In this document: positions 3,001-28,459 of the stretch, in pieces
Layout of the letters: each line of letters begins with the position of its first letter
Position numbering within the stretch: position 1 is the first letter of the stretch
The notes under the pieces: model-generated
The model's database searches: none
Told to the model about the DNA's origin: nothing
The model's input: only the letters and a program-made list of their open reading frames with translations
NCBI GenBank assembly: GCA_021413905.1
Contig: JAIOPO010000005.1
Span: 146,957 to 210,956 of the forward strand
From: Candidatus Nomurabacteria bacterium
GTDB lineage: Bacteria; Patescibacteriota; Minisyncoccia; Phycocordibacterales; UBA9973
Length of the DNA: 64,000 bases
Direction of reading: 5' to 3'
Translations under genes and position numbers: made by a program

Positions 3001-6000
3001 TCAACGCGCACCATATTTACAGCCGAAATATTATCAGGACCTGAAAGAACTATTTGCATTGCCGGAGAAGTAGCAATAGGTTTATTAAAAGTAGCTGTAA
3101 TGGTTAAAGAGTCCCCCATTTTAACAATTCTATCTGTGTCAGAATATGTTACAGATGCTGTTGGAGCAACATCATCTGTATTTAATTGCCCAACTAAAAG
3201 ATACGATGTATTACTTGAATGATCTGAAGCGGTAGCACATAAATAATCAGTATGAACTCCTGTTATATAAAAATCACTTCCACTAGTAAATAAATTTCCA
3301 TAAGTATCTGAAACATCACAAATATTATCAGAGCTAAAACCATATTGAACAGTTGCAGTATCTAAATCTGTATCCGAAGCTGTGATATTTATAGTATCAG
3401 AAGAAACCGGACCTGTGTCTGTACCAGAATTAATTGTTAACACTGGAGGTAATGGATCTGAAGGTATATTGTCTACAGTTAAACCACTAGAGTAATTACT
3501 ATTACTATCTACTGTAAATATTTTATAAAAATAATTTACTCCATTAGTTAAACCAGTATCAGTAAAATGATTCAAACTACCTGTATACAAAATATTACTT
3601 GAACCCAAAACTCCTGGAGCAGAATAAGAAGCACCTTCGGTAGGAGCATCAGAAATTGATGATGTTTTTCTTAACACAAGAACATTATTAAAATCAATAT
3701 CAGTTGGATTGGTCCAAGTCAAAGAAATTTGTTGACTCCCTGCTGAAGAATTCAAACTAGAAATATCATCAGTAGAAAGATTGTCGATTGTAATCGTAGC
3801 ACTATTATTACCAAAACCTGAAGGGGTATGACTAGACACAAAAGAACTTACAGTACTAGTTACAACATAATCAGCTCCAGGAATAGCCGGCATATTTAAA
3901 TGAGTTTTTGGCGTAATGCGAATTTTAAAAATGGTCGGAGTTGTAGTTACAGGAATAGGTGTTCCTCCTGAAAAATTTATAACATTAGACAAAGGATCAG
4001 TTGCAACATTAAAATAAGTTGTATTATTGTCATCACTAGTAACCCTGACTTCACTAATGCCGACATACACACCACTTGATAATGTTACAGTTAAAGATGT
4101 AACAGAATCAGTCCCAGTAGTTGTATAAAAAGTAAATTTATCTAAATCAACAACAGAAGAACCTGGTGCAACTGTAACGCTAGATGGATCAGTACTACTA
4201 CCTAATATAGTAGAAACTGAAAATACCCAATTTGGATTATTTCCGCCATCAAAATTAGTACTGTCAGAAGCATCTATATAATTAGTAGAAGAATTGGCAT
4301 TAGATCTGGAAACATTTACATAAGAAACACTTTGACTGCCAGAAACATCTAAATACCAATAAGAAGAATTTGTACTTCTAAAGTAGATTTTTGTTCCAGA
4401 ACCTTGTCCATTCCAATTTACATTATTAAATGTATAAGTTGAACCAGCATTATATTGTACACGCACCGAAGCTGTTGTAATGTTGTAATTATTTGTAGAT
4501 TGTAAATTACTTGAGAAAACAACTGATGGTAAAAAATTTGTTAATTCATTGTCTGTAGCATCAGCTCCTGAACTATTTGTAATTGTTAAATTATAAAAAG
4601 ATGAACTGGAAGCAGAAGTCATATTCCCTGACAATGTTTGTGTTGTATTACCATTCAAATTAACTGTGCCATTTTGTGCATTAAAAATACCATTGTTTAT
4701 ATAATCACCTGAAAGATTTAAAGTATAATTTTGCCCAGAAACAGTGTTCAATGTATTATTTGAATCAATAGTCAAAGTACCTAAAATATTTGTTACTCCA
4801 GATAAAGATTTAATTGGAGTACCAGTATTACGAGACAAACGCAACCCTCCATAAGATGGCAAAGAAGAAATAGTTTGATTTACTCCTGCATTATAAATGA
4901 CAGTTGATAATTTATGTAAGGTTGTATGAATATTTGTGAAATTTGTAGGAAATACAGTAGCAGTTGTATTTGAACCAAGTCTTAAAAAAGCACCAGTACT
5001 CATTATAAATTGTTCTCCACTATTTCCTGTAATTTGAAAACCTCCATCATACAAAGTACCATTCAATATTTTCAAATATCCATTCACAGTAATAGCACCT
5101 GTCATTGTAGCTGTTTGCCCACTATTATCAACAACAAAATGATAATAAGTTGTAGATTTTATATTTTGAGAAACAGAATTACTAGTATATTGAACGATGT
5201 TACCATTAGCTGTCGCTGTTAAAGTTGTGATCGTTGGGACTGTTCCAGTAAATGTCAAAATAGCATCGACTCCTTGAGTGATTGTGCCAATTGTCGGTTG
5301 TGAACCTGAAAAAATAAGCCCATTATTAACACCGGTATCATTATTGGCAATATTTGTAATTGTAAAAGATTGAGAACCTGAAACAGTTTGTTCGTTTGTG
5401 TCAAAAGTATAAAGACCTGTTCCAGCATTAAATGTACCGTTATTCGAAAGACCTCCCCTAAAAGTAAAAGCCGGATTAGCTACATTTGTAGTCCATGTAC
5501 CACCACTGTTAACAGTAACAAGTCCTATAAAAATATTTGTTCCTGTAACAGAATTATCATTAAATGTACCGGAAATAGAAGAAGTACTGTTCACAGTCAA
5601 GGAATTTGTAGCAATTTGCAATAAAGTTCCAGAAGAAATAACGAGATCGTTCAAAGAAATACTTTTTGCATTATTACCAAAAGTTGTAATACCAGAAGAA
5701 ACAGTAAAAGTACCAGTTGAGGTAATATTTGAATTTAAAGTAATTGTAGCAGTACCTAGTGTTGATATATTATTCCATGTTATTTTATTACCACCACCCC
5801 TGTCAGTATCTAGATTAGTAGATGCGCTAATATTTAACGTAGATAAACTAGCATCAACAACACCACCATTTGAATTATTATAAGTTAAAGTTTTAGTAGA
5901 TCCATCAAAATATACGTTTGGGTAAGAAACAGTTCCTATATTTATAGTACCTGTTGGTTTGATAGTTAAATTTTTCTGTAAAATACCAGTACCTGTGTTA

Positions 6001-7478
6001 GACCATGTTCCAGAACCATCCATTATAATATTCGCACTTCCTGTGATATTTCCATTTTGAGAATCTTGTTTTAAACTTCCACCAACAGTAATATCTCTAG
6101 GAGTATCTGTGCTAGGTAAAGTAAAACCTCTTATTATAGATCCTCTTTGTGTACTGTTTATACTTGTAGTTTGAAAAGTCAGATCATGATCTATATCTAA
6201 ATCAGCCAAAATAGACAGAGTGTTAGCATTTAAAATAGTAGTAACATCATACCAACTCATATTTGCAGAAGGTGTATTTAAAGTAGTACCTGAACCAGAC
6301 AAAATTAAATTTGAATTGCTAGTATTGATAGTTCCTGAAGTCCAAGACAAAGTACCTTGACCATAACCAATATCTCCACTTACAGTGATAATGCCACTAG
6401 TATTAAAATTTAAATTGGTTCTAAACAAAGAACCTGTTCCAGACAAAGTACCAGTACCGTCCATAATCAAAGTTTGGCTAGTAGCACCAGTTACAGTAAC
6501 ATCTGAATTAATAGTTAAATCTCCTCCAACATTTATATTGTAAGAACCACTCAAATTAAAAGCGCTCGAATTTGTGTAATTCAACCAAACAAGATTTCCA
6601 GACACAACTAAATTATTAGACAAAGTAAAATTACCACTAACAGTATTTGATATCACAGCATTTGCAACTGTAATATTATTCCAACTAATTCCACTAGTAT
6701 TAAAAGTGACTCCATTTCCAATATCAAGCATCAAAGTAGAACCTGTTGTCGTAACAACAGCACCACTAGTGGCTGAAATTGTTATAGAAGTTGGAGCATC
6801 ATAAACGACTGTTCCGGAAATTGTAGTATTTGCAGAAGAAGAAAAATTTATATTCATTCTAATTCCACAATCTTGTTGAACACTGGTTGAGAAGGTCGGC
6901 AAAGATGCATGTTGCCAAACACCCGTACCAGTAAAAATCAAAGTTCGACCTGTTCCTTTTATTTGAGCAGTACCATTCATTGTAATATTTGAAGTAGTAA
7001 GATCGTTTGTTGAAACAGTAAGAATTCTACCAGAAGAAACATCAATTCCGTAAAAAGTTTTCCCCGCAGAAATCAAAGTAGATGTTCCATTAAAAATCCA
7101 TTTATTTGAATTTGGAGTAAATGTCATTCCTGAAGCGAGAGTAACATTTCCGGTTGTTGTAATAGTAGAATTCAAAGTAAAAGTATTTGTGTAACCGGAA
7201 AAATTTACAACACTAGCAAAAGAAGGTGCATCGACTGTAATTTGACCTGAACCAGAATCTAAATTAACAGTATCACCCACTGTTGGATAAGTACCGGCAT
7301 TCGTAGAACTAGCAGATGAAACCGTTGACCAAGTAGAACTACTAGACCAGTTACCACCCACAGAACGAGCGTAATAAGTTGAAGCCTGAGCGATATTTCC
7401 AGAAAAAATAAAACACAAAAATGCAAAAATAAAAAATGCAAAAAATTTGTAATTTATTTTCCAAAAGCCAAGTCTCAT
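1..7478 (-). CDS. Giant secreted surface protein, partial (more than 2,490 aa; C-terminus lies beyond window start). It has a signal peptide, Thr/Ser/Asn/Gly-rich repeats, bacterial Ig-like domains and at least one fibronectin type III module.
   Basis: ATG at 7476-7478 (minus) gives MRLGFWKINYKFFAFFIFAFLCFIFSGNIAQA, a signal peptide. The frame then stays open all the way to position 1. The ORF track shows no complete minus-strand ORF in 1-7258, which is consistent with one long incomplete frame. An FN3-like motif LTWTNP...NYFYKIF is present, along with repeated 'TFDNTAPV / DTTLPTVS' BIg-like segments. Confidence 0.85.
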   Translation of the reverse strand, partial: MRLGFWKINYKFFAFFIFAFLCFIFSGNIAQASTYYARSVGGNWSSSSTWSTVSSASSTNAGTYPTVGDTVNLDSGSGQITVDAPSFASVVNFSGYTNTFTLNSTITTTGNVTLASGMTFTPNSNKWIFNGTSTLISAGKTFYGIDVSSGRILTVSTNDLTTSNITMNGTAQIKGTGRTLIFTGTGVWQHASLPTFSTSVQQDCGIRMNINFSSSANTTISGTVVYDAPTSITISATSGAVVTTTGSTLMLDIGNGVTFNTSGISWNNITVANAVISNTVSGNFTLSNNLVVSGNLVWLNYTNSSAFNLSGSYNINVGGDLTINSDVTVTGATSQTLIMDGTGTLSGTGSLFRTNLNFNTSGIITVSGDIGYGQGTLSWTSGTINTSNSNLILSGSGTTLNTPSANMSWYDVTTILNANTLSILADLDIDHDLTFQTTSINSTQRGSIIRGFTLPSTDTPRDITVGGSLKQDSQNGNITGSANIIMDGSGTWSNTGTGILQKNLTIKPTGTINIGTVSYPNVYFDGSTKTLTYNNSNGGVVDASLSTLNISASTNLDTDRGGGNKITWNNISTLGTATITLNSNITSTGTFTVSSGITTFGNNAKSISLNDLVISSGTLLQIATNSLTVNSTSSISGTFNDNSVTGTNIFIGLVTVNSGGTWTTNVANPAFTFRGGLSNNGTFNAGTGLYTFDTNEQTVSGSQSFTITNIANNDTGVNNGLIFSGSQPTIGTITQGVDAILTFTGTVPTITTLTATANGNIVQYTSNSVSQNIKSTTYYHFVVDNSGQTATMTGAITVNGYLKILNGTLYDGGFQITGNSGEQFIMSTGAFLRLGSNTTATVFPTNFTNIHTTLHKLSTVIYNAGVNQTISSLPSYGGLRLSRNTGTPIKSLSGVTNILGTLTIDSNNTLNTVSGQNYTLNLSGDYINNGIFNAQNGTVNLNGNTTQTLSGNMTSASSSSFYNLTITNSSGADATDNELTNFLPSVVFSSNLQSTNNYNITTASVRVQYNAGSTYTFNNVNWNGQGSGTKIYFRSTNSSYWYLDVSGSQSVSYVNVSRSNANSSTNYIDASDSTNFDGGNNPNWVFSVSTILGSSTDPSSVTVAPGSSVVDLDKFTFYTTTGTDSVTSLTVTLSSGVYVGISEVRVTSDDNNTTYFNVATDPLSNVINFSGGTPIPVTTTPTIFKIRITPKTHLNMPAIPGADYVVTSTVSSFVSSHTPSGFGNNSATITIDNLSTDDISSLNSSAGSQQISLTWTNPTDIDFNNVLVLRKTSSISDAPTEGASYSAPGVLGSSNILYTGSLNHFTDTGLTNGVNYFYKIFTVDSNSNYSSGLTVDNIPSDPLPPVLTINSGTDTGPVSSDTINITASDTDLDTATVQYGFSSDNICDVSDTYGNLFTSGSDFYITGVHTDYLCATASDHSSNTSYLLVGQLNTDDVAPTASVTYSDTDRIVKMGDSLTITATFNKPIATSPAMQIVLSGPDNISAVNMVRVDSTHYYYVYSVGSGDGTETVSFSTGTDLAGNLITSTPVSGDTFTLDNTAPVFSSVNPVSNGFISSVTISSSISYTLSESLASGSIAITRIGGSVDNASPHLCTFRNTALNSGTHNHFSIGTGNGCTVAQSLVDGAIYDFDFNGTDVAGNIVATVSSTNVTFDTSLPYVTSIVRANTSPTNVSSVDFTVTFSESVTGVDISDFVLNNTGVSGAQISNVSGSGTTWTVTVDSYSGEGTIQLQADSNAIVFDLTGGGLSNLPFTTGQIYTIDTSFPKFNIEYYDSSDTGLIFPLSNNSYLKAGSYIIKITSDETLNSAPYISIDSEGSNNDVVSGTTTHLSGDVYTYNRTIISDVLAEGLVPENVTITGTDLAGNSSVDVLPDNVGSIDIYTDTTLPTVSINTTFSDPTNISPISVSVLFSEHVTGFNLNDIDVTGGVAGNLIGSDENYTFEISPSNPTSAISVFIKTNSAQDLALNLNSTTSNTINITYNSVNPTVILTSTSSLSPVPTSDSTFNITATFSSAILGGVTGFDDLLNDIVVANGVVSNLQAVNDSVYTFDVTPGDGAVDVFVPAGVAEDASNNLNTQSNILSFIYDNSKPYIVSVSSDSQTFNKLTTTPHTIFVVFNEDISNVPDIEINGIDVGNVSTTAMYACDLIHNSKTFCYDFTVPDSIGPLTKTITISGAEDVSSNVMDSDSGHTFDIDTSGLTVTVEQTDPRDPTDISPINFTAVFSQTVLDFDETDVTLSGTANAGTVVVTDSGDHMNFNIAVSDMAVDGTVIVSISSDVAHNSNGNPNMSSSSTDNIVTYNTVRPTLVVSLNDYDLKIGDVANVTFTFSSEPSGFDDGDISVSNGTLSSVVVDPGDSKIYTAIFTPDDDIEDSSNVITVGTGWTDSVLNEPLDPTDSLNFNIDTLAPVISENSAISSSINSTPSYVFTSSEAGSISYGTGDCRAVTLSATSGLNILNFESLSVGVHSNCTLLVTDSAGNQSNILSVTPFSILSSS

Positions 7479-7859
7479 ATACATATAATAATAACATTTA
7501 GATAAAAAAATTGAATAAAAAAATACAAAAATTAATGTGTATAACTAAAAAAGTTTTTTTAAAAGAAAATTAATTGAATTAAAAAAAATTATAAACAAAA
7601 ATCCTGTAAAACAAAAAAAATGGCACACATCTCAAACAAAAGACAGAAAACAAAGGAAAACCACAAACAAACAATAAACCGAAGATTAAACAATACCACC
7701 TAATATTTTCTATTTTTTACCTTGCAGGTCTTCAAAGAATATAAATTAAAAAAATATTAAATAAAAAATCGCAAGGATAATAATTTAAAAACTTATATTT
7801 TAAAAGATTCGCAAGGACTGTCCTTGCGAATATACATGTTATATTGATATAATATAAGA

Positions 7860-8489
7860 ATGAAAAGAAGGGATAAATTTATCACAGGTAAATATTATTG
7901 GATCTATAATTCTGGATTAAACAAACAACCAATATTCAATACTGACTCAGACTATCACAGATTTATGATCTTATTGTATTTAGTAAACTCTAAAAACAAG
8001 TCTTTTCGACTTGATGATTTAATCAATAAACAAAAAAAGAGTACTGAAGAAATTTTTACAATAGACAAAGGAGATAAGCTTGTGTCAATAGGTGCTTGGT
8101 GTGTTATGCCAAATTATTTTAATCTATTTATTAAACAAGAAACAGATGGAGGGATATCAAAATTCATGAAAAAACTTTGCACAGGATATTCAATGTATTT
8201 TAATATAAAAGAAAAAAGAAAAGGTCCCCTCTTTGACGGACTATTTAAATCAAAAATGTTAGATGAAAAAAATGCAGAAGAGATGAAAAAATTATTTGCT
8301 TACATTCATTTAAATTTACTTGATATGAAATTTTCAGATTGGGAAAATGAAATAAAAAAATCATCGAATGAGATGGTGAAATTTATCGAGTCATATCCCT
8401 ACTCCAGTTATTTAGATTATGATGACAAAAATAGACCTGAGAAAAAAATCATATCACCAGAGAATTTTCCAAACTATTTAAACAATTAA
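7860..8489 (+). CDS. IS200/RAYT-like Y1 (HUH) transposase homolog with a degenerate HUH motif; possibly inactive or domesticated.
   Basis: WCVMPNYFNLFIKQ aligns to the family motif (A)YCLMPNHxHLL(I), but both His residues are replaced (H->Y and H->N). The C-terminal AYIHLN region retains a Tyr, where the family normally has YIHNNP. The overall order FxDxDY...MPN...GPLFDGxFKS fits PF01797-like proteins. Confidence 0.6.
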   Translation: MKRRDKFITGKYYWIYNSGLNKQPIFNTDSDYHRFMILLYLVNSKNKSFRLDDLINKQKKSTEEIFTIDKGDKLVSIGAWCVMPNYFNLFIKQETDGGISKFMKKLCTGYSMYFNIKEKRKGPLFDGLFKSKMLDEKNAEEMKKLFAYIHLNLLDMKFSDWENEIKKSSNEMVKFIESYPYSSYLDYDDKNRPEKKIISPENFPNYLNN

Positions 8490-9902: not shown

Positions 9903-10622
9903 TTATTTTAAAAACTTTTTAAATTCTTTAGGTAAAGTAGACTCTATTTTTAGAGTTTCACCCTTTGGATTTTTGATTTCTATAGAAAGAGAATGCAAAG
10001 CAAGACGATCAATATCTTTCGGGCAAATTCCTTTTGAATTGTATAATCCATCACAAACCACAGGATGACTTATTGATTTTAAATGAACTCTAATTTGATG
10101 TGTCCTACCTGTTTTTGGATGAACTTCCAAAAAAGTAAAATCTTTAAATCTTTTTAAGACTTTAAATTCAGTGATAGCTTCACGCAATTCCCCACGCGCA
10201 CCTCTACCAGCCAGACGTTTCCTGAAATCATTAGGACTGCGACCGATAGGTTTATCAATTATAAATTTATCTTTATTTATTTTTCCTTGAGCCAAAGCGT
10301 AATAAACTTTCTTCACTTCCCTGTTTTGAAATTGCTCTTTTATAAATTCATAAGATTTTTGATTTTTCGCCAAAATTAAAACTCCCGATGTGTCTTTATC
10401 CAATCTATGCACTATACCCGGTCTTTTTATTTCAACGCCATTATACATTGCCGGCTCACCGACATTTTTCATCTTGGGATAATTCTTTAAAACCCAATCA
10501 GTGACAAATTTTTCCTTTTTATTATCGGAATTTGTCCTGAGCATAGCCGAAGGATGCACAGAAATACCAGACGGCTTGTCTATCGCTAAAATATCTTTGT
10601 CTTCGTATAAAATCTTGATCAT
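9903..10622 (-). CDS. RluA-family 23S rRNA/tRNA pseudouridine synthase.
   Basis: The catalytic motif HRLDKDTSGVLILAK is present, the size is 239 aa, and the gene is co-oriented with rplS. Confidence 0.85.
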   Translation of the reverse strand: MIKILYEDKDILAIDKPSGISVHPSAMLRTNSDNKKEKFVTDWVLKNYPKMKNVGEPAMYNGVEIKRPGIVHRLDKDTSGVLILAKNQKSYEFIKEQFQNREVKKVYYALAQGKINKDKFIIDKPIGRSPNDFRKRLAGRGARGELREAITEFKVLKRFKDFTFLEVHPKTGRTHQIRVHLKSISHPVVCDGLYNSKGICPKDIDRLALHSLSIEIKNPKGETLKIESTLPKEFKKFLK

Positions 10623-11372: not shown

Positions 11373-12779
11373 CTACCTATGATTAATTGAAATTGAACGA
11401 TTCGTATTCTGAATTTCTTTTAACAACCTATCAAGCATATATTTTGTATTGTGTTCAAAATCTTTATCCGTACTTACAGGAATATCAATATTAATTTCTT
11501 TACCTTGGTTCAGATAGTTTACCTTTTTGTTTTTTAAATCAAAAGATACCACTACATCACTTATGCTTTCTTTACTAAGAGACGCATATGCTTTACTTAT
11601 ATTATCTTCCGTAAGAATTTCAGAAAATGCATTTAAATTCTCATCGGATTTCCTTCCTATAAATTTTTCATTCTTGAAAAAAATTGAAAACAGTATATTT
11701 TTATATTTATCACTATGTGATGAGCCGTAAAGTATCTCTATTTCATCTTTTGGAACACTTGGATTTGAAGTAACTTCCCTTACTTGCATAAGTGTCGGAT
11801 GAGAGTACGACATAGTCATTATAAAATCGGTAATGTCTTTCTTTGCAAGATTAATGTTTTCCTTTGTCTCTTCTTTGTTTAAAGTATGATTCTCAACTTT
11901 AGTTAAATCATCGTGTCCCATTAATTGATTTTCTAAAAATTGTTCTTCTAGTTTAATTTTTAATTTCGCAAGAACCTCTTTACTGATGTGCCTATTTTCA
12001 CCAAGTTCATTAACCCAATCAATACTTAAGTCACTGTCAAAAAAGCTATCAAGATATTTGAAGTCTATTTCTTCAATTGGTTTTGTTATCTCTTCTAATA
12101 ACTTATTTTCGGTAGAATTTTTATCCAGATATTCCTTATTTTCAACAAAATTCTGCATTCTATCATCAAGTTGTGTGTCTTCTTTGGATACTTCTTTTTT
12201 ACCAAGAGTAATTGCTTCTCTCCAAAATTTAGATCTCATTTTACCCAAAGTAAGAACATCTATATCTAAATCTATACTTTTCTCAAAATCATAATGATAT
12301 ATAGAGTTACCAGAATTTATTACGCTAGATACATCAACTCCCATGCTCTCCAGTATTGCCATTGCTTTTAAATTATTTAAGGTAACTTGGTAACTCCCAG
12401 TACGATAACTTTCATTTATTGGAACAAGTGATTCCAGATATTTCATATCTTTAAGAAGTCGAAATACGCAATCTTTCAATTCTTGCTTTTTACTTTCATT
12501 AAAATCAGTCGTTTCAATTCTATTTAAATAAATATTTGCTTCGTTATGTATAGTTTCAAGAGCTGAATTTAATTGACCTTCTTTTAAATTTTGCTCAAAA
12601 ATTGAATAGGCAGGATTTAAAAAATTTCGCTGTATAGCATGAGCTTCTTGATACTCCTTCGTTTCTTTTTCTATTTCTAAATTCTCGACTGCTCTCTGAG
12701 GGTTCTCTTTTCGAGTTTTCTTCAAATCTTTCGCAAGATTGTCACGATATTCCGATGAATTAAAATTTGGTTTTTCCAT
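11373..12779 (-). CDS. Hypothetical acidic protein, 468 aa, no recognisable domain.
   Basis: Long ORF with a Lys/Glu-rich low-complexity composition. It is preceded by a copy of the structured leader RNA (12812-12975). Confidence 0.55.
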   Translation of the reverse strand: MEKPNFNSSEYRDNLAKDLKKTRKENPQRAVENLEIEKETKEYQEAHAIQRNFLNPAYSIFEQNLKEGQLNSALETIHNEANIYLNRIETTDFNESKKQELKDCVFRLLKDMKYLESLVPINESYRTGSYQVTLNNLKAMAILESMGVDVSSVINSGNSIYHYDFEKSIDLDIDVLTLGKMRSKFWREAITLGKKEVSKEDTQLDDRMQNFVENKEYLDKNSTENKLLEEITKPIEEIDFKYLDSFFDSDLSIDWVNELGENRHISKEVLAKLKIKLEEQFLENQLMGHDDLTKVENHTLNKEETKENINLAKKDITDFIMTMSYSHPTLMQVREVTSNPSVPKDEIEILYGSSHSDKYKNILFSIFFKNEKFIGRKSDENLNAFSEILTEDNISKAYASLSKESISDVVVSFDLKNKKVNYLNQGKEINIDIPVSTDKDFEHNTKYMLDRLLKEIQNTNRSISINHR

Positions 12780-12811: not shown

Positions 12812-12975
12812 AGACAAAAAGCTCCTAGCCAGCGATAGTCCGAAGACTACCCGTAACCGTTTCCAGCTACGACCCAACAAAGGTGAACTCTGACTAGGAG
12901 TTCTTTACCTTTGTTGGGATTCATGTGACCATACCATTTTGACTATAAAAAACTACAGATAAAATGGGTTAGGTC
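12812..12975 (-). ncRNA. Copy 4, diverged, of a novel structured leader RNA motif (see findings); it ends in an intrinsic terminator immediately upstream of the 11373-12779 gene.
   Basis: The minus-strand read is GACCUAACCC...GGUAUGGUC...[cccaacaaaggt...AAAGAACUCCUAGUCAGAGUU...acctttgttggg] UCGUAGCUG-GAAA-CGGUUAC [tagtc-UUCG-gacta] ...GCUGGCUAGGAGCuuuuu. It is co-linear with copies at 27789, 39286 and 58546 and shows compensatory stem changes. Confidence 0.55.
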
Positions 12976-14835: not shown

Positions 14836-14893
14836 TTATTATATCCTGTAGTGAAACTTTTATAAAGTTCTACTACGGGATTATATCATTACT
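14836..14893 (-). repeat. Intergenic imperfect inverted repeat, copy 2 of 2, between the ruvX stop and the csaA start.
   Basis: ttattatatcctgtagtgaaacttttataaagttctactacgggattatatc; about 85 percent identical to copy 1. Confidence 0.5.
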
Positions 14894-15341
14894 TTTTTAA
14901 ATTTCTCTTATCTAAATATCTCTGCAATATAAGTGCCGCGGCGGACGCATCTATGCGTCCAGACTTTATTTGTTTTACTTTACTATGTGATTGAGATTGA
15001 TTGAAATCTTTTTTCTGATCTTTTGAATTTCGTGCAGTAACAGATGTCAAAAATTCTTTTTGTTTATGTATTGGTAAATTAAATTTCTCTGTAAGTTCTA
15101 AAATAAAAACATCAATACGAGCAGACAAAGCATTTAATTTTCCGGAAAAATCCACCGACTCTCCGACCACAATTTCTGTAATATTTTCTTTTTTAATTAT
15201 CTCTCCTATTTTTTTATATGTATTTTGATCATTCAAAACTATCTCTTTCGGAAATGCTAAAGTGCCATTTTCATCAGAAATAGCCAAACCTATTCTTTTT
15301 GTCCCATAATCTATACCTAAAAATCGGCCTAATAAATTCAT
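14889..15341 (-). CDS. ruvX: Holliday junction resolvase-like protein RuvX/YqgF.
   Basis: The N-terminal LGIDYGTKRIGLAISD motif is diagnostic of YqgF. Confidence 0.9.
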   Translation of the reverse strand: MNLLGRFLGIDYGTKRIGLAISDENGTLAFPKEIVLNDQNTYKKIGEIIKKENITEIVVGESVDFSGKLNALSARIDVFILELTEKFNLPIHKQKEFLTSVTARNSKDQKKDFNQSQSHSKVKQIKSGRIDASAAALILQRYLDKRNLKK

Positions 15342-15703: not shown

Positions 15704-15964
15704 ATGTACTACTTTTATGTATTAAGATTTCATAAAAATAAAAAACTATATTATGGTTTTACAAATGATTTAAAGCGCAGAATAAAAGAACATAGAGCTG
15801 GAAATTCTGATTTTAGTTCTAAAAATGGAATATTTGACTTAATCTTCTATGAAGCTTATATTAGTAAAGAGGATGCTAGAGAAGCAGAAAAATATTTCAA
15901 AACAGGACATGGAAGAGAGGTTTTGAAAAATAAATTGAAAAATTATTTTGGAGGCGTCGCATAG
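15704..15964 (+). CDS. GIY-YIG nuclease superfamily protein (YhbQ/URI-like, about 86 aa); its 3' end overlaps the 5' end of tRNA-Ser.
   Basis: MYYFYVLRF...KLYYGFTNDLKRRIKEHRAG is a GIY-YIG core. The ATG at 15704 is preferred over the upstream TTG at 15656. The stop codon TAG lies inside GGAGGCGTCGCATAG, which is the start of the tRNA. Confidence 0.75.
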   Translation: MYYFYVLRFHKNKKLYYGFTNDLKRRIKEHRAGNSDFSSKNGIFDLIFYEAYISKEDAREAEKYFKTGHGREVLKNKLKNYFGGVA

Positions 15965-16036
15965 TGGTTTAGTGCACCTGTCTTGAAAACAGGAGTACCG
16001 CAAGGTACCGTGAGTTCGAATCTCACCGCCTCCGCC
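15950..16036 (+). tRNA. tRNA-Ser (anticodon TGA) with a long variable arm.
   Basis: GGAGGCGTCGCATAGTGGTTTAGTGCACCTGTCTTGAAAACAGGAGTACCGCAAGGTACCGTGAGTTCGAATCTCACCGCCTCCGCC; the anticodon loop is CTTGAAA. Confidence 0.85.
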
Positions 16037-16112
16037 TTGACAACCTGTTAGTTTCGTGTCCCGACTGCCTGAGGTGGCAGTGCGACCCGAGTGCTACCAT
16101 GGTTGTAACAAA

Positions 16113-16146
16113 AACGGAGCATAATGTGCTCCGTTTTTGTTTTTTC
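16113..16146 (+). terminator. Intrinsic terminator downstream of tRNA-Ser.
   Basis: aACGGAGCAtaatgTGCTCCGTtttttgttttttc. Confidence 0.65.
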
Positions 16147-16199
16147 TTCTATAATTTCTCCGAAAAAATTGAATTTGGTACGTATGCTAGAATTAGCAT

Positions 16200-19100
16200 G
16201 TGGATCAATATATACAGCCCATCACAAAGGTATTCACCTCTTTTGAAGAGGCTAAGAACGATGTCGACCAAAATGGTCACTCGTCTCTTTTCATTGATGA
16301 CCGCAAGATACTCAGCCTTACTGACCTCGCCCAAGGAAACCGTAATTTAATCGTTGGCGAGCCGGGCGTTGGAAAGACCGAGCTTCTGAAGAAATTTAAG
16401 GCGCACCATGACACCCTTGGCGACAAGACATGCTTGGTTAATCTTCGCATCGGAAGTCCGATTGAACAGATTGATTCCTTTTTAAAAGAAACGACAACAG
16501 CAAAAAAGGTTCTCATTCTCGACGCACTCGACGAGGTTCGCTCGTCTATTTTCCCGAATGTGCTTCAAAAAATAGAGACTGTATCAAAAGAGAATCCTGA
16601 TCTGATCATTTATCTGTCTTCTCGCTGGATATTCGTAAGCAAATACGCCAACAGCTTTCCGGACTTTCGATTCATCAGAATTCTGCCGTTCTCGACATGG
16701 CAGGTGAAAAAATATCTCATGCATGCCGGACACACTGAGGCTGATGTCGATGCGCTCCTTGCGCGGATCATGCATTTCAATCACGGAAAGCTTTTGGTTC
16801 AAATTCCTCGGTATCTATTTTTCCTAGTTGCCTTTATAAAAGACAAGACCATCGCAAACGTTTCTCAGATATCGAGAAACGAGCTGTTTGAATACTTCAT
16901 TTACTCCAAGCTCGACATTGAGGACAAAAATCTTAACACCGACACGAAGGCGGTCATCAAGCGCATACTGGAAAAACTCGCACTGACAATGGAAATATAT
17001 CAGGCGAACACCATTACGAAAGATGAGCTTATGACATTCTTCGACGATATCGAGTCAGATCTCAAACTGACCGTGCTTTCACATATTACGCTTGAAGTCT
17101 TTTATGCGAAGACTATTCTTCAGGAAAGTACACAGGATCTCAACAGTGTTGAATTTGAAAACGCCGAATTCCAAGAATATCTCGCGGCAAAGGAAATTAC
17201 ACGCTTCTCCGAACCGCACCGTGTCGCTTTCGACTTCGCCGTCGAGGAAAATATCGATGAGATACTTCCGTCATGGTTCAATACGCTCACGTTTCTCGTC
17301 GATATGATTCCCGACATACTCGAACAGCTCTTGGAATTCTCAGGTCTGAGAAGCGGAACATTCAAGATTGCCGATGAAGGATTTTTAAATTTTCTCGGCA
17401 GAGTGAATCCAACAAGCATCTCGTCTGAATTTCGAAGCCGTATATTCATGGACGTAATCAACTATCACGAAAAGACCTTGCAATGGATTCCGGGGCAACT
17501 GACCCATTCGCTTCCGGGCTTCTTCAGTATTGCTCTTGAGGCAGATCTCAAGCGTCTTGCGGAAAGTGCAGAAAAAGAAACTGGCACAAATTATTTCGTG
17601 AAGCTCGGGAATATTGCGTATACGGTTGCGTACTTGTTTGATGCAAAAGTCGCACTCGACAAACCGTACTGGCGCGAAAAACTAATCTCCTACACAAAAG
17701 ACAAAAATGAAAACGGTGTATTGCAACGCCATGCGCTTTTGGCTCTCGAAAAGCTTGGCGACCCAACCGTCATCGACGAGCTACCGAATCTATTACTCGG
17801 GAATGACGAGCTGGTCGCGCGCGAATTTGTATCTGCCTGCATCGCGCTCGATCCAGACCACCCGAAGAGTGTTATCTATGCGATGCAATTGATAAAAGAT
17901 GGTGAGCTGTCCGGTCGGTATGGACTGTTTGAAATGAAAAAGAAATCATCCATCGTTGCCTTTTTCAAGGAATACATAAAAGATGACAAGTTCAGAAAGG
18001 AATTCCTCGATGATGTCCCTATCCTAGGTGAGCAGGATGTCGCGCTCGTCAAAAACATTGAAGCGATTCTCGATGATGAAATTGCGGAACTGTGTAAGGA
18101 GGTTATTGCAAAATCAATCGAAAGCTACCTCCACCAGTCAATCGACCAGTCTGCGTTCGTGAACGGATTGTTTCAATTGCTCAAGAAAAGGGACTCGGGA
18201 TTCATATCAGAAATAGTCAGACGTTTACACAAGGACGATGAGAAAAAACATACCCTGTACTTCGCCCAAGAAACATTTGCGCGAATACTTGGAAAAGACG
18301 ACATCGTTCCATTCCTCGGTGTCATGATTGAGCTTGGTCAACAGAAGATGGCGATGGATACGATGGTTAGAATTAAATATTCCAAGCGCGATGCCTGCGA
18401 AGAAATGTTCGAGTTTGGAAGAAGCAAGTTGCCGACGGAATATGCTGAGTGGGAGGCGGCTATTCAGCGGGGCACACCTCCGGCGGATACTTCACGGACG
18501 GATAAAATGCTCAAGGAATTCAGATTGTACCTACAACCCAAAAAGGGAGAATTTACGATGGGTGTTTTTCATCATTATATCCACGCCGCTGACACACTCG
18601 ATCCGCTCCTAACGAAAAAGGATAAAGACCGACTGATCGAATTGATTACCGGCAGTGTCTTGAACCAAAATCCGACAGCGCATGGCTTCACTATTCAATC
18701 AGAACATCCAGATGGCGGCACTCAACGATACACTACGAGCCAAGTCGTCCAGATGTTTGGTGATGCTCTCCGCGCCGCTCAGCGACTTGGTGTCGATATC
18801 ACTCCGTACCGAAAAAATATCGCGCTCTATATTCCATTCGCATACAGCGAAGAACTTAAAACTATTTTCGAGCTGATTAAAGACTTCAAGCCGGACGAGC
18901 TTGATCCGGTCATTGCGATATATCAGGAGAAAAAAGATGACCTCTGGCGACACCAACCAGAAAGCTTTGCGAATCTCGCACAACAGTATCATCTAGTTGC
19001 GGCAGTTCCCGTACTCCGCGATTTTGTGAAAGAGTCTCGCTTCCGTATCTACAATAGATGCGAGATGTTGAGGATTATTGATTCTCTTGCACCCGATGCC

Positions 19101-20282
19101 GGTTTTCTCAAGGAGATATTCGATCTTTACATCAACAGCGAAAACGAAAAAGAGATTGCGTATATTGCAAACGGTCTTTTGATTACTTCCCACGCCAACG
19201 CCGACGCTATTAACTGGCGACTCGAGGAAATAAAGAAACGCCCATTTGCTTCAAGTCTTCGACCTTACGGAGTAGTCCATAATGTTGGAGTAGAAGAAAA
19301 CGAGTTGCGTCACGATAAGCCGTTTGCCAAGCCACTCTCCGAACTCAAATATTCGGGATTTGAAGAAAAATATCTCGAACTGCTTGATAGCGCGATTGAG
19401 GTCTGGTCTCGTGGGAAGCAGTTTCAGGAGTACGCACAATATATGTGGGAAATCGTGCATTCCTATTTTGAAAATCTCAAAGAGGATCGAGACTACAGAC
19501 CGCTCAGAATGCTCGAAGAAAAAATTGCTACGCTCAAAAATAAAGAAGGGGCAAACTGGCTCGCTTCAAGCATGGTTCGCTTGCGCCGTTCGTATTTGGC
19601 GTATCTTGGAAAGCCGAAGAATTTCTCTGAGGCAATTCGTAACTACAACAAGGCACGAACATTTGAGGAAAAGAAAATCCGCAATTCTGCCGATTTGTTC
19701 CATCACTTACAAGACGTAATCAGTACCGAAATAAAACAATGGGTTGTTGACGATGGAGCATACAATATCATCGTCTCGAAAAAGAAGTACGCAAAAGAAA
19801 ATAAGGAATATGAAAAGCTTGTGCAAATGACAATCGGATCTGAAATCAGTAACGCATGCAGAGGACGCGGTTTTAGAATTGATCTGGCTCGCGAACAGCA
19901 GAAGCTCGATGGGAAGAAAACAGATTTCATTGTCCGTTACGGCTTCGTGGGTCCTATCGTACTCGAAGTGAAGCTCGGCTCCAGTTCGGATTTAAAAATG
20001 AAAAATCCTGAGAATTCAAAATCCTACGAGAGTATGGGAAATTACATGAAGGGATACGGTGCTTCACACGGTATTTTCCTGATCATGGATGACACTGGCG
20101 CAAAGCACATTATGAGAGCAAAGGAAGTGTTCAACCGTATCCCGAGCGTATCAGCAATGGTTCTCGACTGCTTCACTCCGGCGACAAAAAACCAAGCTCG
20201 AAAAACATCGACAACCAAGAAAAAATTAACAAAGAAAAAGTCTGTTGAAAAAACCAAAAAGGCTACTGCGAAAAAATCATAA
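16200..20282 (+). CDS. STAND/NACHT-type P-loop NTPase of 1360 aa with a central HEAT-repeat region, a C-terminal PD-(D/E)xK nuclease-like domain and a Lys-rich tail. Candidate antiviral NLR-like defense protein.
   Basis: Walker A LIVGEPGVGKTELLKKF and Walker B KKVLILDALDEV are present, followed by LIIYLSSR. HEAT/PBS-lyase-like repeats are seen at LQRHALLALEKLGDPTVIDELPNLLLGNDELVAREFVSA. The C-terminus ...KKTDFIVRYGFVGPIVLEVKLGSS gives a D...ExK arrangement, and the tail is KKKLTKKKSVEKTKKATAKKS. The start is GTG at 16200, directly after an in-frame TAG. Confidence 0.75.
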   Translation: MDQYIQPITKVFTSFEEAKNDVDQNGHSSLFIDDRKILSLTDLAQGNRNLIVGEPGVGKTELLKKFKAHHDTLGDKTCLVNLRIGSPIEQIDSFLKETTTAKKVLILDALDEVRSSIFPNVLQKIETVSKENPDLIIYLSSRWIFVSKYANSFPDFRFIRILPFSTWQVKKYLMHAGHTEADVDALLARIMHFNHGKLLVQIPRYLFFLVAFIKDKTIANVSQISRNELFEYFIYSKLDIEDKNLNTDTKAVIKRILEKLALTMEIYQANTITKDELMTFFDDIESDLKLTVLSHITLEVFYAKTILQESTQDLNSVEFENAEFQEYLAAKEITRFSEPHRVAFDFAVEENIDEILPSWFNTLTFLVDMIPDILEQLLEFSGLRSGTFKIADEGFLNFLGRVNPTSISSEFRSRIFMDVINYHEKTLQWIPGQLTHSLPGFFSIALEADLKRLAESAEKETGTNYFVKLGNIAYTVAYLFDAKVALDKPYWREKLISYTKDKNENGVLQRHALLALEKLGDPTVIDELPNLLLGNDELVAREFVSACIALDPDHPKSVIYAMQLIKDGELSGRYGLFEMKKKSSIVAFFKEYIKDDKFRKEFLDDVPILGEQDVALVKNIEAILDDEIAELCKEVIAKSIESYLHQSIDQSAFVNGLFQLLKKRDSGFISEIVRRLHKDDEKKHTLYFAQETFARILGKDDIVPFLGVMIELGQQKMAMDTMVRIKYSKRDACEEMFEFGRSKLPTEYAEWEAAIQRGTPPADTSRTDKMLKEFRLYLQPKKGEFTMGVFHHYIHAADTLDPLLTKKDKDRLIELITGSVLNQNPTAHGFTIQSEHPDGGTQRYTTSQVVQMFGDALRAAQRLGVDITPYRKNIALYIPFAYSEELKTIFELIKDFKPDELDPVIAIYQEKKDDLWRHQPESFANLAQQYHLVAAVPVLRDFVKESRFRIYNRCEMLRIIDSLAPDAGFLKEIFDLYINSENEKEIAYIANGLLITSHANADAINWRLEEIKKRPFASSLRPYGVVHNVGVEENELRHDKPFAKPLSELKYSGFEEKYLELLDSAIEVWSRGKQFQEYAQYMWEIVHSYFENLKEDRDYRPLRMLEEKIATLKNKEGANWLASSMVRLRRSYLAYLGKPKNFSEAIRNYNKARTFEEKKIRNSADLFHHLQDVISTEIKQWVVDDGAYNIIVSKKKYAKENKEYEKLVQMTIGSEISNACRGRGFRIDLAREQQKLDGKKTDFIVRYGFVGPIVLEVKLGSSSDLKMKNPENSKSYESMGNYMKGYGASHGIFLIMDDTGAKHIMRAKEVFNRIPSVSAMVLDCFTPATKNQARKTSTTKKKLTKKKSVEKTKKATAKKS

Positions 20283-20648
20283 TTCGATTTCATTCTTGAA
20301 CGTGTCGAGCGCCATCTCGAACGCATCGAGTCGCGTGCCGGTGCATAGCCCTCCGCACAAGCTGTCTTCGCCATCTGCCATGGCTTTTTCGCTCTCATAT
20401 ATTTCGTACATATATCCCTCGTTCATCTCGCTCCACTCGATTGAAATATACAGTGGCTTTTCGGCCGTGCTGTGTTTTTTACACCACAGACTGTCATCCG
20501 TCGCTCGCTCGGGACAGATGCGACAAAACTCCCAGTCTTTCCGATCCTCCACGTTCACTTTCTCCCAACATCCGTCGCACAGTCCGTTCTCGAACGGCTC
20601 GCTCATCGAGTTCGACGGACATCCTTTCTGTTTGCAAAAATATGCCAT
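20277..20648 (-). CDS. Small Cys-rich, multi-CxxC zinc-binding protein of 123 aa.
   Basis: Five Cys pairs: FCKQKGC, LCDGCW, FCRICP, WCKKH and LCGGLC. It lies between the NACHT gene and the serine recombinase. Confidence 0.5.
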   Translation of the reverse strand: MAYFCKQKGCPSNSMSEPFENGLCDGCWEKVNVEDRKDWEFCRICPERATDDSLWCKKHSTAEKPLYISIEWSEMNEGYMYEIYESEKAMADGEDSLCGGLCTGTRLDAFEMALDTFKNEIEL

Positions 20649-20649
20649 G

Positions 20650-21993
20650 TTATTTTTCTTCGTTTTCTTTTAGTAAAGTAATTTTCTTGTTGTTCAGTAC
20701 CAATCTCGTCCGCAGGTGACCCATCAGCTCGCGCTTCTCAAGCGGCGTACCCTCGCGGAGGACGTACTTCGCGTACTCTCTTGTATTCACATCGTCCTCG
20801 TTGATTGAATACTTCGGTGTACCTTTGGTCGCCAGTCGTTGTAGCCGGTTGAATCGTTTGATTTCTTCCTCCAGTTTCATTCGCATTCCCAGTTCATTGA
20901 TGCTCACTTGATCAATTACCTTGAACAGTTCCTCGATCAATTCTTCCTCGCGGATGTATTTGTTCTTGCAGTTGCGATCTCTTGCCTTCGAGCAGGAGTA
21001 GTAGACATACTTGGCCGTCGTCGTGTCTTTTAGCTCCTTGTACTTCTCCTGCGCCGTGATACCCGAGCCACATAGTCCGCAGGTAAACAATTTCGTGAAT
21101 GCGAATTCTCGATTTTCTCGCACAATCTTGTCTCGTTTCAGTTGCTCTTGTGCTTTCTCGTACAGTTCTTTCGTTATGATCGGCTCATGCTTCCCGTCGT
21201 ACCAATTGCCGGAGTCTCGGGGATACTCGAATGGTCCGTAGTAAATCGGCATGTTGAATATTCGGTACACTCCGCTCAGTGTCAGCGGCCGATTTCCTCT
21301 GGTGTGGAAATTCAGATCGAATCTGAGCCAGTTGTACACCTTTCGTCCGCTCCACCCCTCGTATGCCACTTTCTCGAACATTTTCCGGACGATCGGGGCG
21401 CGGTCGGGGTCGATTGCGATCTGGCATTTCCGGTCGAGCAGTTTCTGGTTCAGATACCCAAGCGGTGCCATGCCCGGCCAGAGTCCCATCTCAACCCTCG
21501 TTCGCAGTCCGCGCTTCACGTTAATGCCTCGGTTGTCGTTTTCGAGCTTCGCTTGCGAGCCGAGAATCATGAGCAGGAATTTCTCGTTCGGGTTGTTTCC
21601 GAACGTCTGCCCGAAGGTGCGTATCTGGTGCAATTTTCCCGCGTCCATGAGGTCGACAATTTTCCCGAGGTCACCCGCGTTTCTACTAATTCGATCCGGT
21701 GCCCATGTCAGGATGCCGTTGAACTTTCCGGCTCGCAGTTCGTCGATGATCTCGTTGAACACTGGCCGCTGACCCGTCTCTTTCGCGCTGTGACTCTCAC
21801 GCTTCATGGTCACAATCTCCAACCCCTCGCGCTCGGCCAGTTGGAGCATCTCCTTGATCTGGCTGTCGATGCTGAGCACCTGCCTCTCTTCCGACTCTGT
21901 CGATTTTCTCGCGTAGAGGCAGTATTTCATCTTGATCGGGATGACTACTTTGGCCGTCGTCCCTAATGGCGCTTGCGTTTGTGTATGGTTCAT
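20650..21993 (-). CDS. Large serine recombinase, integrase type, copy R1.
   Basis: YARKSTESEERQVLSIDSQ is the resolvase catalytic-Ser region. A recombinase domain follows, then the CGLCGSG...CSKARDRNC zinc ribbon and a C-terminal coiled-coil. The probable start is the M of MNHTQ... at about 21993, although the ORF is open to 22080. It is paralogous to 37815-39134 and 53409-54737. Confidence 0.85.
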   Translation of the reverse strand: MNHTQTQAPLGTTAKVVIPIKMKYCLYARKSTESEERQVLSIDSQIKEMLQLAEREGLEIVTMKRESHSAKETGQRPVFNEIIDELRAGKFNGILTWAPDRISRNAGDLGKIVDLMDAGKLHQIRTFGQTFGNNPNEKFLLMILGSQAKLENDNRGINVKRGLRTRVEMGLWPGMAPLGYLNQKLLDRKCQIAIDPDRAPIVRKMFEKVAYEGWSGRKVYNWLRFDLNFHTRGNRPLTLSGVYRIFNMPIYYGPFEYPRDSGNWYDGKHEPIITKELYEKAQEQLKRDKIVRENREFAFTKLFTCGLCGSGITAQEKYKELKDTTTAKYVYYSCSKARDRNCKNKYIREEELIEELFKVIDQVSINELGMRMKLEEEIKRFNRLQRLATKGTPKYSINEDDVNTREYAKYVLREGTPLEKRELMGHLRTRLVLNNKKITLLKENEEK

Positions 21994-22049
21994 ACATCTA
22001 CAGGAATGACGCAATACCGCTATGGAGTCCAGAGCGTCCCGAGTGGTAG

Positions 22050-22060
22050 GTGTTGGTAAC
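22050..22060. promoter_or_regulatory. Recombinase-associated conserved core GTGTTGGTAAC; putative attachment-site core at the R1 site.
   Basis: The same 11-mer recurs at 27696, 39189, 54793 and as GCTGTTGGTAAC at 58454. The left arm ...GATGACGCAA..AGAGCGTCCC is shared with the R3 site. Confidence 0.45.
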
Positions 22061-22083
22061 TTTTTTCTTGATATACTCACTAT

Positions 22084-27788: not shown

Positions 27789-27943
27789 GACCTAACCCCG
27801 AAAGGCCTTGTGGCTTCTCGGATATGGTCAAAAAACCGCTACAGTATAAAAGACTCCTCGTCAGAGTCACTGTAGCGGTCGTATCCGGAAACGGGTATGG
27901 GTTTAGCCGAAAGGCTGAATCGCGATGGCGAGGAGTCTTTTAT
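27789..27943 (+). ncRNA. Structured leader RNA copy 1 of the novel motif: promoter-proximal, covarying helices, GAAA tetraloop hairpins and a terminal intrinsic terminator.
   Basis: GACCUAACCCC[ccga..ucgg]GGAUAUGGUC AAAAAA [ccgctacagt AUAAAAGACUCCUCGUCAGAGUC actgtagcgg] UCGUAUCCG-GAAA-CGGGUAUGG [agcc-GAAA-ggct] ..GGCGAGGAGUCuuuu. The 3' segment CGAGGAGUC is complementary to GACUCCUCG in the apical loop. Confidence 0.6.
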
Positions 27944-27988: not shown

Positions 27989-28459
27989 ATGAATGACCTC
28001 AACAAGTTTTTTGCCACCACAAGTGGCAAGTGTGCGTTCGCAATCATTTTTTTAATAATCGGTTTCTTCGGCGGTATGCAGTACAAGGCATACCAGATCA
28101 AGAGCGTCATCACTGATTCGCTCATGCCTGCGATTACGAGCAGTTTGGATGACGCGAGAACGAAAGCGAGCGACGCGAAAATCCGTGCAATCGTTTCGTC
28201 CGCTCGGGCACAAGGCGAACTGTATTACTCGTCTGGCGGCAACGATACAACCTACAAGGGAGTTTGTTCTGATTCTGAATTTACGCATTTGATTGATGGC
28301 GCGAATAGCACGCCGACCTGTAACGAAGCCAGAGACGGTTCCGCATGGGCAGTCGCCATTCCAATGAGCGACTCATCAACCTATGCTTGTTCTGATTCCA
28401 CTGGCGCATCCATCGTCATTAATTATCCGCTCGGTTCCGCTAGTTCTTGCACGAAGTAG
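27989..28459 (+). CDS. Pilin-like or pseudopilin-like small secreted protein with an atypical N-terminus.
   Basis: Hydrophobic N-terminal helix AFAIIFLIIGFFGG, then ...SSARAQGELYYSSGGN, which resembles the N-terminal helix of Gram-positive/CPR type IV pilins. The C-terminal Cys pairs fit, but the canonical G-FTLIE prepilin site is missing. The in-frame upstream extension from 27824 overlaps the RNA and was rejected. Confidence 0.4.
   Translation: MNDLNKFFATTSGKCAFAIIFLIIGFFGGMQYKAYQIKSVITDSLMPAITSSLDDARTKASDAKIRAIVSSARAQGELYYSSGGNDTTYKGVCSDSEFTHLIDGANSTPTCNEARDGSAWAVAIPMSDSSTYACSDSTGASIVINYPLGSASSCTK

Follow-up and report, generated by a model that had tools for sequence, protein, structure and literature searches.

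A candidate NACHT-type immune receptor with a C-terminal nuclease-like domain on a phage-derived island of Candidatus Nomurabacteria

Among bacterial NACHT proteins, HEAT repeats are listed as one kind of sensor (Kibby et al., 10.1101/2022.07.19.500537; later Cell 2023), and both restriction-endonuclease (REase) effectors and the placement of effectors at the C-terminus have already been described (Kibby et al., 10.1101/2022.07.19.500537). C-terminal effectors that follow the repeats are predicted to take the same spatial position as N-terminal ones (same source). For the wider group of STAND proteins, Lee et al. 2026 (PMC13581612) describe Avs7-21 and catalogue 589 STAND clades, 198 of which are defence-associated. 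NCBIfam holds two models under the name "NACHT domain-containing antiphage protein", NF058535 (EruA) and NF058534 (HyoA). Here we analyze a gene related to these systems in a 64,000-nucleotide stretch of contig JAIOPO010000005.1 of a Candidatus Nomurabacteria bacterium; this whole stretch is called the window. The gene encodes a protein of 1360 amino acids (aa) whose order of domains is an N-terminal NACHT module, about 690 conserved residues opening with about three HEAT repeats, a nuclease-like domain, and a polybasic tail. With a probability of about 0.62, we consider it to be a stand-alone immune receptor, bNACHT/Avs-like, that a phage-derived integrative island carries as cargo at its att-proximal end. 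The features of the gene are listed below in window coordinates.

16200-20282, plus strand: whole gene, 1360 aa; NACHT-STAND NTPase, helical sensor region, PD-(D/E)xK-like nuclease domain, basic tail
16335-16694, plus strand: NACHT nucleotide-binding domain (NBD), residues ~46-165; invariant residues, Pfam NACHT, model confidence (predicted local distance difference test, pLDDT) ~90, Foldseek NLR matches
16356-16379, plus strand: Walker A, G53-T60; GEPGVGKT, which fits GxxxxGK[ST]; G53, G58 and K59 invariant in 40 sequences
16509-16535, plus strand: Walker B, V104-E112; DALDE, corresponding to D[GAS]hDE
16623-16625, plus strand: Sensor-1, R142 (in IYLSSR), invariant
16695-17609, plus strand: helical domain 1 (HD1), winged-helix domain (WHD) and helical domain 2 (HD2), residues ~166-470; model, Foldseek
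17154-17189, plus strand: WHD motif F319-ENAEFQEYLAA-330; invariant, including N321
17682-18005, plus strand: about three PBS-type HEAT repeats, residues ~495-602; Pfam HEAT_2, profile against the PDB
18006-19667, plus strand: conserved, indel-poor region, residues 603-1156, presumed rest of the sensor; alignment conservation
19668-20174, plus strand: PD-(D/E)xK (REase-like) domain, residues ~1157-1325; model, invariant residues
19812-19814, plus strand: E1205, in the helix before the beta strands
19923-19925, plus strand: D1242, directly ahead of beta2
19965-19967, plus strand: E1256, in beta3
19971-19973, plus strand: K1258, in beta3
20175-20279, plus strand: lysine-rich, acid-poor tail of 35 aa; 14 K/R, 1 acidic residue

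The open reading frame (ORF) at 16200-20282 on the plus strand, proposed in a first-pass annotation of the window, is confirmed by at least 210 homologues and by the same product in GenBank, of identical 1360-aa length (MCE9585594.1, [quoted passage not shown]). By arithmetic, a stop-free run of 1360 codons at 45% GC has a chance of ~5e-34. The GTG at 16200 is the sole in-frame ATG, GTG or TTG ahead of Walker A, and the starts of homologues cluster within a few residues of the conserved Y4-I5-x-P7. The GTG start given by the annotation therefore stands, but its position directly after a stop is only nearly exact; an in-frame TAG is located at 16194-16196, one codon upstream. The motifs that it listed (G53EPGVGKT60, V104LILDALDE112, L135IIYLSSR142 and T1241DFIV...IVLE1256VK1258) are all present.

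The best 120 homologues are nearly all full length (1210-1451 aa), with 42-77% identity and 89-100% coverage. In 40 diverse homologues, G53, E54, G58, K59, D108, D111, E112, R142, E1205, D1242, E1256 and K1258 are invariant. The sources at 42-55% identity are patchy and include members of the candidate phyla radiation (CPR), Nitrospirae, Gammaproteobacteria, Dormibacteraeota, Bacteroidota, and Nitrosopumilus; the named sources are Nitrosopumilus, Patescibacteria, Pacebacteria, Dormibacteraeota, Saccharibacteria, Nitrospirae, and Gammaproteobacteria. Full-length relatives at 24-31% identity are found in Bacteroidota, including Chitinophaga arvensicola DSM 3695. Such a patchy distribution across phyla is in keeping with horizontal transfer, a typical trait of defence genes. 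Some of the homologues P0105, P0179, P0210, P0244, P0267 and P0021 have an extra helix-turn-helix (HTH) or excisionase-type domain at the N-terminus. Most members, MCE9585594.1 included, have weak or faint precomputed matches to Pfam PF28130 (DUF8371). This label stands for a domain of unknown function and adds nothing on function.

The N-terminus is a NACHT-type STAND module. This assignment is based on the matches of 33 of 36 family members to Pfam NACHT, the D[GAS]hDE form of Walker B, and the structural matches, in which the top 50 are all NLRs. For the single 1360-aa sequence, all Pfam matches at the N-terminus (NACHT, AAA_22, NPHP3_N and nSTAND3) are sub-threshold, and NACHT (PF05729) reaches 16.8 bits against a gathering cut-off of 26.7. 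Across the 36 members, NACHT is the most-matched family (33 at E<=0.01, best 1.3e-6), with NPHP3_N found in 27 and KAP in 2. Judged by these scores, the family is divergent, and Pfam NACHT picks its members up below threshold.

The AlphaFold2 model of residues 1-470, calculated from 24 aligned sequences, has a pLDDT of 83 and a predicted TM-score (pTM) of 0.83, and shows alternation of strands and helices in the NBD. A Foldseek search of the PDB with this model has only animal NLRs among its top 50 matches (NLRP14, NLRC4, NLRP3, NOD2, NAIP5, NLRP7 and NLRP9), with E between 2e-11 and 2e-7 over 460-530 columns. The TM-scores to these NLRs are 0.31-0.51, the top values (0.48-0.51) being against activated NLRC4 and NLRP3 assemblies; they are low because the domain orientations differ. 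The modelled NBD-HD1-WHD-HD2 arrangement resembles known NACHT structures, which indicates that the winged-helix extension is present. The motif QIPRY (P203) falls in the HD1-WHD-HD2 stretch, residues ~166-470. A KAP or generic, housekeeping AAA+ identity of the N-terminus was considered and rejected, with KAP matching 2 and NACHT 33 of the 36 members and all fold matches being NLRs. Both Pfam and Foldseek thus agree with the NACHT/STAND module of the first-pass annotation rather than with an unrelated AAA+ or KAP family, the outcome that it had named as its refutation.

The Walker B motif and the WHD motif were inspected individually. The residues D108, D111 and E112 are invariant, and position 109 is A or G in the inspected homologues. 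The D[GAS]hDE form is what sets NACHT apart from other STANDs (Kibby et al., 10.1101/2022.07.19.500537). All residues of the WHD motif listed above are conserved in the family. We take F319-ENAEFQEYLAA-330 to be the counterpart of the NLR WHD motif FxHxSFQEFLAA, which it resembles when aligned by eye from known motifs, and N321 presumably stands at the position of the ADP-contacting His of NLRs (the equivalent of NLRC4 H443). In this by-eye alignment to the NLR motif, the WHD His of the NACHT clade is thus not found, and an invariant Asn is at its position.

The C-terminal domain is, according to its model, a divergent nuclease-like domain of the PD-(D/E)xK kind, whose E...D...ExK residues are all intact. 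In the model of residues 1090-1325 (30 sequences; pLDDT 77 overall and 84-94 in the core), the helix with E1205 is followed by beta1, D1242 and then beta2, beta3 with E1256 and K1258, a helix, and a strand. This order is that of the canonical PD-(D/E)xK core (alpha-beta-beta-beta-alpha-beta), with residues of the catalytic type in their canonical places in the predicted structure. The D...ExK arrangement that was first read from the letters is therefore located on beta2 and beta3 of a PD-(D/E)xK-type fold in the model, not outside of one. A profile of the domain was searched with full-sensitivity HMMER against 1.84 billion cluster representatives and matched 352 proteins, 308 of them at E<=1e-10. 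Nearly all of the 352 are fragments or else proteins of 1310-1435 aa that carry the domain C-terminally. Because the matches share almost without exception one layout, the domain belongs specifically to this architecture, rather than being a cassette shuffled between systems.

The K-rich tail, also mentioned in the first-pass annotation, proved to be a conserved trait of the family. It is present in most of the 40 aligned homologues, is 9-92 residues long, typically consists of 35-60% K/R with 0-2 acidic residues, and shows no sequence conservation. The exceptions are P0001, which is truncated, and P0048, whose 9-aa tail has one K/R. In P0021, from Patescibacteria, a 126-aa HAD-phosphatase-like extension replaces the basic tail. 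Selection on the tail acts on composition, not on sequence, and the tail is consistent with non-specific nucleic-acid binding.

Between the two ends, the HEAT signal is restricted to a short segment. Pfam HEAT_2 matches the 1360-aa protein at E=0.004 (17.9 bits against a threshold of 27.7) and 15 of the 36 members (best 4e-5). A profile of residues 470-1100, made of 15 sequences with distant Bacteroidota relatives included, matches designed alphaRep proteins (PBS-type HEAT) in the PDB at E=2e-7, at profile positions 26-133 only. A search of the PDB with the single protein gave no match; with the full-length profile, HEAT and P-loop entries were the only matches, and weak ones. The claim of roughly 800 aa of HEAT repeats is consequently overstated, as the signal covers about 110 residues (~495-602). 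In residues 603-1156, no Pfam or PDB sequence match, no repeat, and no enzymatic motif were found in those searches; residues 1090-1156 are predicted to be helices in the C-terminal model. In the 40-sequence alignment, the mean column identity is 0.56 for residues 603-1090, 0.68 for 1091-1156, and 0.61-0.66 for the ATPase, and there is no insertion of five or more columns in residues 603-1156.

The neighbourhoods of homologues were collected from a scan of genome contigs, which gave at least 11 loci, and a scan of viral contigs, which gave at least one; both used unspecific back-translated patterns. P0010 (locus L001, 53% identity) adjoins Prim-Pol, Toprim, and a serine recombinase 35% identical to the recombinase of the island described below. 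P0014 (L017, 51% identity) directly adjoins a cassette of a terminase large subunit (TerL), a small ORF, and two methyltransferases (MTases), which is syntenic with that of the island and 41-62% identical to it. P0007 (L016) adjoins an RHS/SpvB toxin and Imm26, and a 28%-identical relative is located on an IMG/VR viral contig (L019). Among the homologue loci listed, no neighbour gene is conserved across the family, which indicates that the NACHT protein acts alone, and the proposal of a single-gene system holds. The Cys-rich 123-aa ORF next to the gene was rejected as a conserved partner, having no Pfam or PHROG match and no homologue beside other family members.

The gene is inserted in a mobile island, whose features are as follows.

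15950-16036, plus strand: tRNA-Ser(UGA); ARAGORN and Rfam tRNA; its 3' end is the left island boundary (integration site)
16037-36221, no strand: mobile island, ~20.2 kb, GC 0.43-0.50, phage-derived; composition, Logan contigs, gene content
16032-16043 and 36210-36221: possible att core CCGCC(A)TTGACA; reading of the sequence at both island ends
16107-16141, plus strand: terminator-like hairpin (stem of 16 pairs, then a T-run), located after the tRNA/att site and ahead of the gene
20277-20648, minus strand: Cys-rich 123-aa ORF; shares 6 nt with the NACHT gene at its stop codon and runs in the same direction as the serine recombinase
20650-22080, minus strand: large serine recombinase, presumed island integrase; Pfam Resolvase, Recombinase and Zn_ribbon_recom
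30740-35990, no strand: far-end cargo block of the island; terminase, methylases, Mrr
30740-32194, minus strand: terminase large subunit; phrog_38, E=1e-80
32166-32591, minus strand: small ORF beside TerL
32584-34648, minus strand: two N6/N4 DNA methylases
34787-35248, minus strand: ORF
35310-35990, plus strand: Mrr-type endonuclease with a Zn ribbon
36278-37381: HNH_5 protein, beside the island
37815-39134, minus strand: second large serine recombinase

The window has ~32% GC except for 15950 to ~36280, where it is 43-50%, and GC rises from ~0.27 to ~0.47 at the tRNA-Ser(UGA). We interpret the island as a phage-derived element that has integrated here, the NACHT gene being adjacent to attL. 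Further island genes are ZnuABC, Fur, YibE/F, and a superinfection-immunity-like gene. The host is Candidatus Nomurabacteria; the RluA at 9903-10622 is 100% identical to MCE9585585.1 from this group, and the next named matches are from Patescibacteria, Paceibacterota, and Parcubacteria. The suggestion of a CPR-like genome was thus right for the host, but the gene is not native to CPR, being on an island of 43-50% GC in a genome of ~32% GC. Logan contig SRR15633504_95446 (20,234 nt) carries the exact NACHT protein and, judged by offset, spans 16007-36240 of the window. Over its first 14,276 nt, the portion compared, it is identical to the window. It consists of the island with 30 nt of flank on each side, and starts 30 nt inside the tRNA, at 16007. 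The right-flank Logan contig of SRR15633504 begins at window 36211, giving a 30-nt overlap with the island contig. Look-ups of the flanking host proteins at 36278-37378 and 14889-15338 gave no record. The empty attB site had no match in JGI metagenomes, an uninformative result as the host flank is equally absent there. A recombination directionality factor and a zinc-ribbon protein are both possible identities for the Cys-rich ORF (20277-20648, minus strand). To the right of the island, 36278-39134 is a second mobile-element-like stretch in host-like low GC, and the tRNA-Ser locus appears to hold tandem elements.

The context of the NACHT gene is suggestive of defence: the island has an integrase, a terminase, a superinfection-immunity-like gene, methylases and Mrr, and homologues are on mobile or conflict loci. 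Weak, reproducible homology to EruA and HyoA at both ends, at 30.7 and 28.6 bits for the 1360-aa protein and 24-52 bits across the members tested, links the family to named antiphage proteins. By analogy with Avs3/Avs4 and bNACHT25, the NACHT module at rest would be ADP-bound and the protein an autoinhibited monomer. The helical/HEAT region would bind a phage-derived protein or another cue of infection, and nucleotide exchange would then open the NACHT module and drive oligomerisation. Oligomerisation would gather the C-terminal nuclease domains into active dimers or tetramers, with the basic tails helping to hold DNA. Phage DNA, host DNA, or both would be degraded and the infection halted, with the cell probably lost in the process (abortive infection), to the benefit of the island and its Candidatus Nomurabacteria host.

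Several points weigh against this immune role. The scores to EruA and HyoA are far from the cut-offs of 1000/1200 bits, so the protein belongs to neither family, and a search of the literature on these two names found nothing relevant. No model of PADLOC-DB 2.0 matches the protein. P0021 and P0039 (L002 and L018) have housekeeping neighbours. Oligomerisation, ligand and substrate are all inferred. Furthermore, the even conservation of the presumed sensor would fit a conserved target and a conserved non-immune role equally well. In the latter case, the NACHT switch would serve in a DNA-bound regulator or in a maintenance or segregation factor of a mobile element, and the REase-like domain and the tail would mainly bind DNA. 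The uniformly high conservation without indels along the whole protein, presumed sensor included, is in line with such a role, as are the N-terminal HTH or excisionase-type domain added in some members and the housekeeping neighbours at several homologues. Pfam also knows a NACHT-associated inactive REase, NA-iREase1, to which the Mrr protein of the island is a weak match, and in Lee et al. (PMC13581612) non-defence STAND clades are interspersed with defence clades. However, inactive REase domains typically lose the residues E1205, D1242, E1256 and K1258, which are invariant here in 40 sequences. The gene is also sporadic, has been transferred between phyla and across the divide between bacteria and archaea, and is often on mobile elements or conflict loci. 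A non-immune role is thus considered unlikely.

It is quite improbable, too, that the protein acts in defence with its REase-like domain as a sensor or anchor for DNA ends, modified DNA or a DNA structure, and kills through residues 603-1156, NTP depletion, or a partner in trans. The domain is found almost only in one architecture (352 of 1.84 billion cluster representatives) and is not a swapped effector cassette, the basic tail suggests constitutive contact with nucleic acid, and residues 603-1156 have no assigned fold. These residues, however, have no enzymatic motif or family match, and no partner gene is conserved beside homologues. The nuclease fold with its intact catalytic set offers the simplest effector, at a place for which an equivalent position of C-terminal effectors is predicted (Kibby et al., 10.1101/2022.07.19.500537). 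A last alternative concerns the context only: a 20 kb high-GC segment of another organism could have been joined to the host sequence through tRNA k-mers, the gene itself still being real. The sharp GC step at both island ends, the fact that the segment forms a Logan contig of its own in the same run, with its ends exactly on the two boundaries, and the fragmentation of the host flanks in the Logan assembly would agree with an assembly artefact. A chimera is nevertheless unlikely: both junctions are bridged by one GenBank contig of 214 kb, in which the accession numbers of RluA (MCE9585585.1) and the NACHT protein (MCE9585594.1) differ by nine. The island and right-flank Logan contigs share exactly 30 nt of non-conserved intergenic sequence; the boundary coincides with a tRNA 3' end, each end has the CCGCC(A)TTGACA repeat, and an integrase is encoded on the island itself. 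Moreover, the LOOT RNA and the TerL-MTase cassette of the island resemble two others in the low-GC flanks. We regard an artefact as very improbable.

An extension of the immune-receptor reading, doubtful but conceivable, is that the DUF8371-type family would be a distinct and widely transferred lineage of NACHT receptors in CPR, other bacteria and archaea. Its sensor, unusually conserved and free of indels, would recognize a universal feature of infection or a host-independent cue, and its C-terminal nuclease, specific to the family, would be tethered to DNA by the polybasic tail. The gene would have been delivered to Nomurabacteria, CPR cells with a reduced genome, by a terminase-bearing, satellite-like element, as NLR-type immunity from outside its lineage. 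The even conservation of the sensor leads to the expectation of one conserved ligand, so the family is a good candidate for trigger discovery. If antiviral, the family would add to the bacterial NLR-like receptors a compact lineage of ~350 clusters, defined by a C-terminal nuclease and a polybasic tail, and would show that phage-derived islands from donors of higher GC can bring NLR-type immunity to CPR/Patescibacteria. The present understanding of the way STAND immune proteins act is unchanged by this family. What is of interest in it is its occurrence in a CPR host, its delivery by a phage-derived island, its polybasic tail, and the unusual degree of conservation of its sensor.

The rest of the window contains other features. 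Four LOOT RNAs (Rfam RF03000) are present in the 64 kb, at 12834-12975 (minus), 27789-27921 (plus), 39286-39411 (plus) and 58547-58668 (plus), with scores of 75-82 bits against a gathering score of 46. Each is ~50-70 nt upstream of a co-oriented ORF (11373-12779, 27989-28459, 39462-40427 with PG_binding_1, and 58733-59350), and three of the four are within 1-3 kb of a TerL-MTase cassette. We know of no function or host assigned to the LOOT motif; here, it is placed in a Candidatus Nomurabacteria genome and linked to phage-like modules. The cassette of MTase, in part a second MTase, small ORF and TerL-like gene is present in three diverged copies, all on the minus strand (30740-34648, 40449-43690 and 60157-63999). 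No portal or capsid genes follow the terminase in these cassettes. They may represent either prophages in decay or elements of a satellite-like kind, and the cassette could also function as an independent unit. A block of copper-ATPase, HMA-DsbD and cupredoxin genes at 48865-53095 (minus) is syntenic, with 55-73% identity, with positions 1-2124 of L017 (GCA_964615415.1), and that assembly holds a TerL-MTase cassette and the 51%-identical NACHT homologue within 10 kb of the copper block. In the low-GC region, a weakly matching adenylate/guanylate-cyclase-like protein (E=2e-4) is encoded at 44975-45793 (plus) and a SIR2_2-domain protein (E=1.5e-8) at 47630-48610 (plus). They may be further defence genes, Pycsar-like or SIR2-type. 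A giant ORF of at least 2514 codons, at 3-7544 (minus), runs off the left end of the window, and no second ORF of at least 100 aa is listed beside it in 1-7860.

Of the known systems, Avs proteins (Avs1-5, reportedly from work by Gao and colleagues in 2020 and 2022, and Avs7-21) have in common with the 1360-aa protein a single polypeptide of STAND NTPase, large helical sensor and nuclease effector. In several of them, the effector is of the Cap4- or Mrr-type PD-(D/E)xK kind. A further likeness is the likely course from trigger binding through oligomerisation to nuclease activation, and both are frequently on prophages. Described Avs proteins have an N-terminal effector and a TPR-like sensor, and their NTPases are mostly outside the NACHT clade. 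The effector of the 1360-aa protein is instead at the C-terminus. The PADLOC Avs models do not match this protein, and one of the 36 members matches Avs2 at 1e-4. Membership in Avs, EruA, HyoA or any PADLOC family is ruled out on scores.

With the bNACHT proteins, the 1360-aa protein shares the D[GAS]hDE NACHT module, the winged-helix extension, the single gene, and a putative repeat-type sensor, and bNACHT25, with its Mrr-like domain, is an example of a known REase-type effector. It differs from them in its C-terminal nuclease, in a NACHT module that starts ~45 residues in, in the invariant N321, and in the polybasic tail. None of the tested bNACHT proteins is shown to be a close relative. 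With 1318 positions (EruA) and 1430 (HyoA), the two NCBIfam models are close in size to the 1360-aa protein, and their order of domains is the same. The N-terminal NACHT of the family matches model positions ~15-220 of both, and the C-terminal domain matches ~1140-1240 of EruA and ~1245-1388 of HyoA; only the ends match, and the middle regions do not align. These matches at both ends mean that the layout is already present among proteins named antiphage. The description of the locus as an undescribed variant was therefore overstated, as HEAT sensors and C-terminal effectors are known (Kibby et al.) and the layout is that of EruA and HyoA, although the family itself is absent from PADLOC-DB 2.0. 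On account of this missing PADLOC membership, the precedents in Kibby et al., and the EruA/HyoA layout, the 1360-aa family is a new, uncharacterised family of an already described architectural type.

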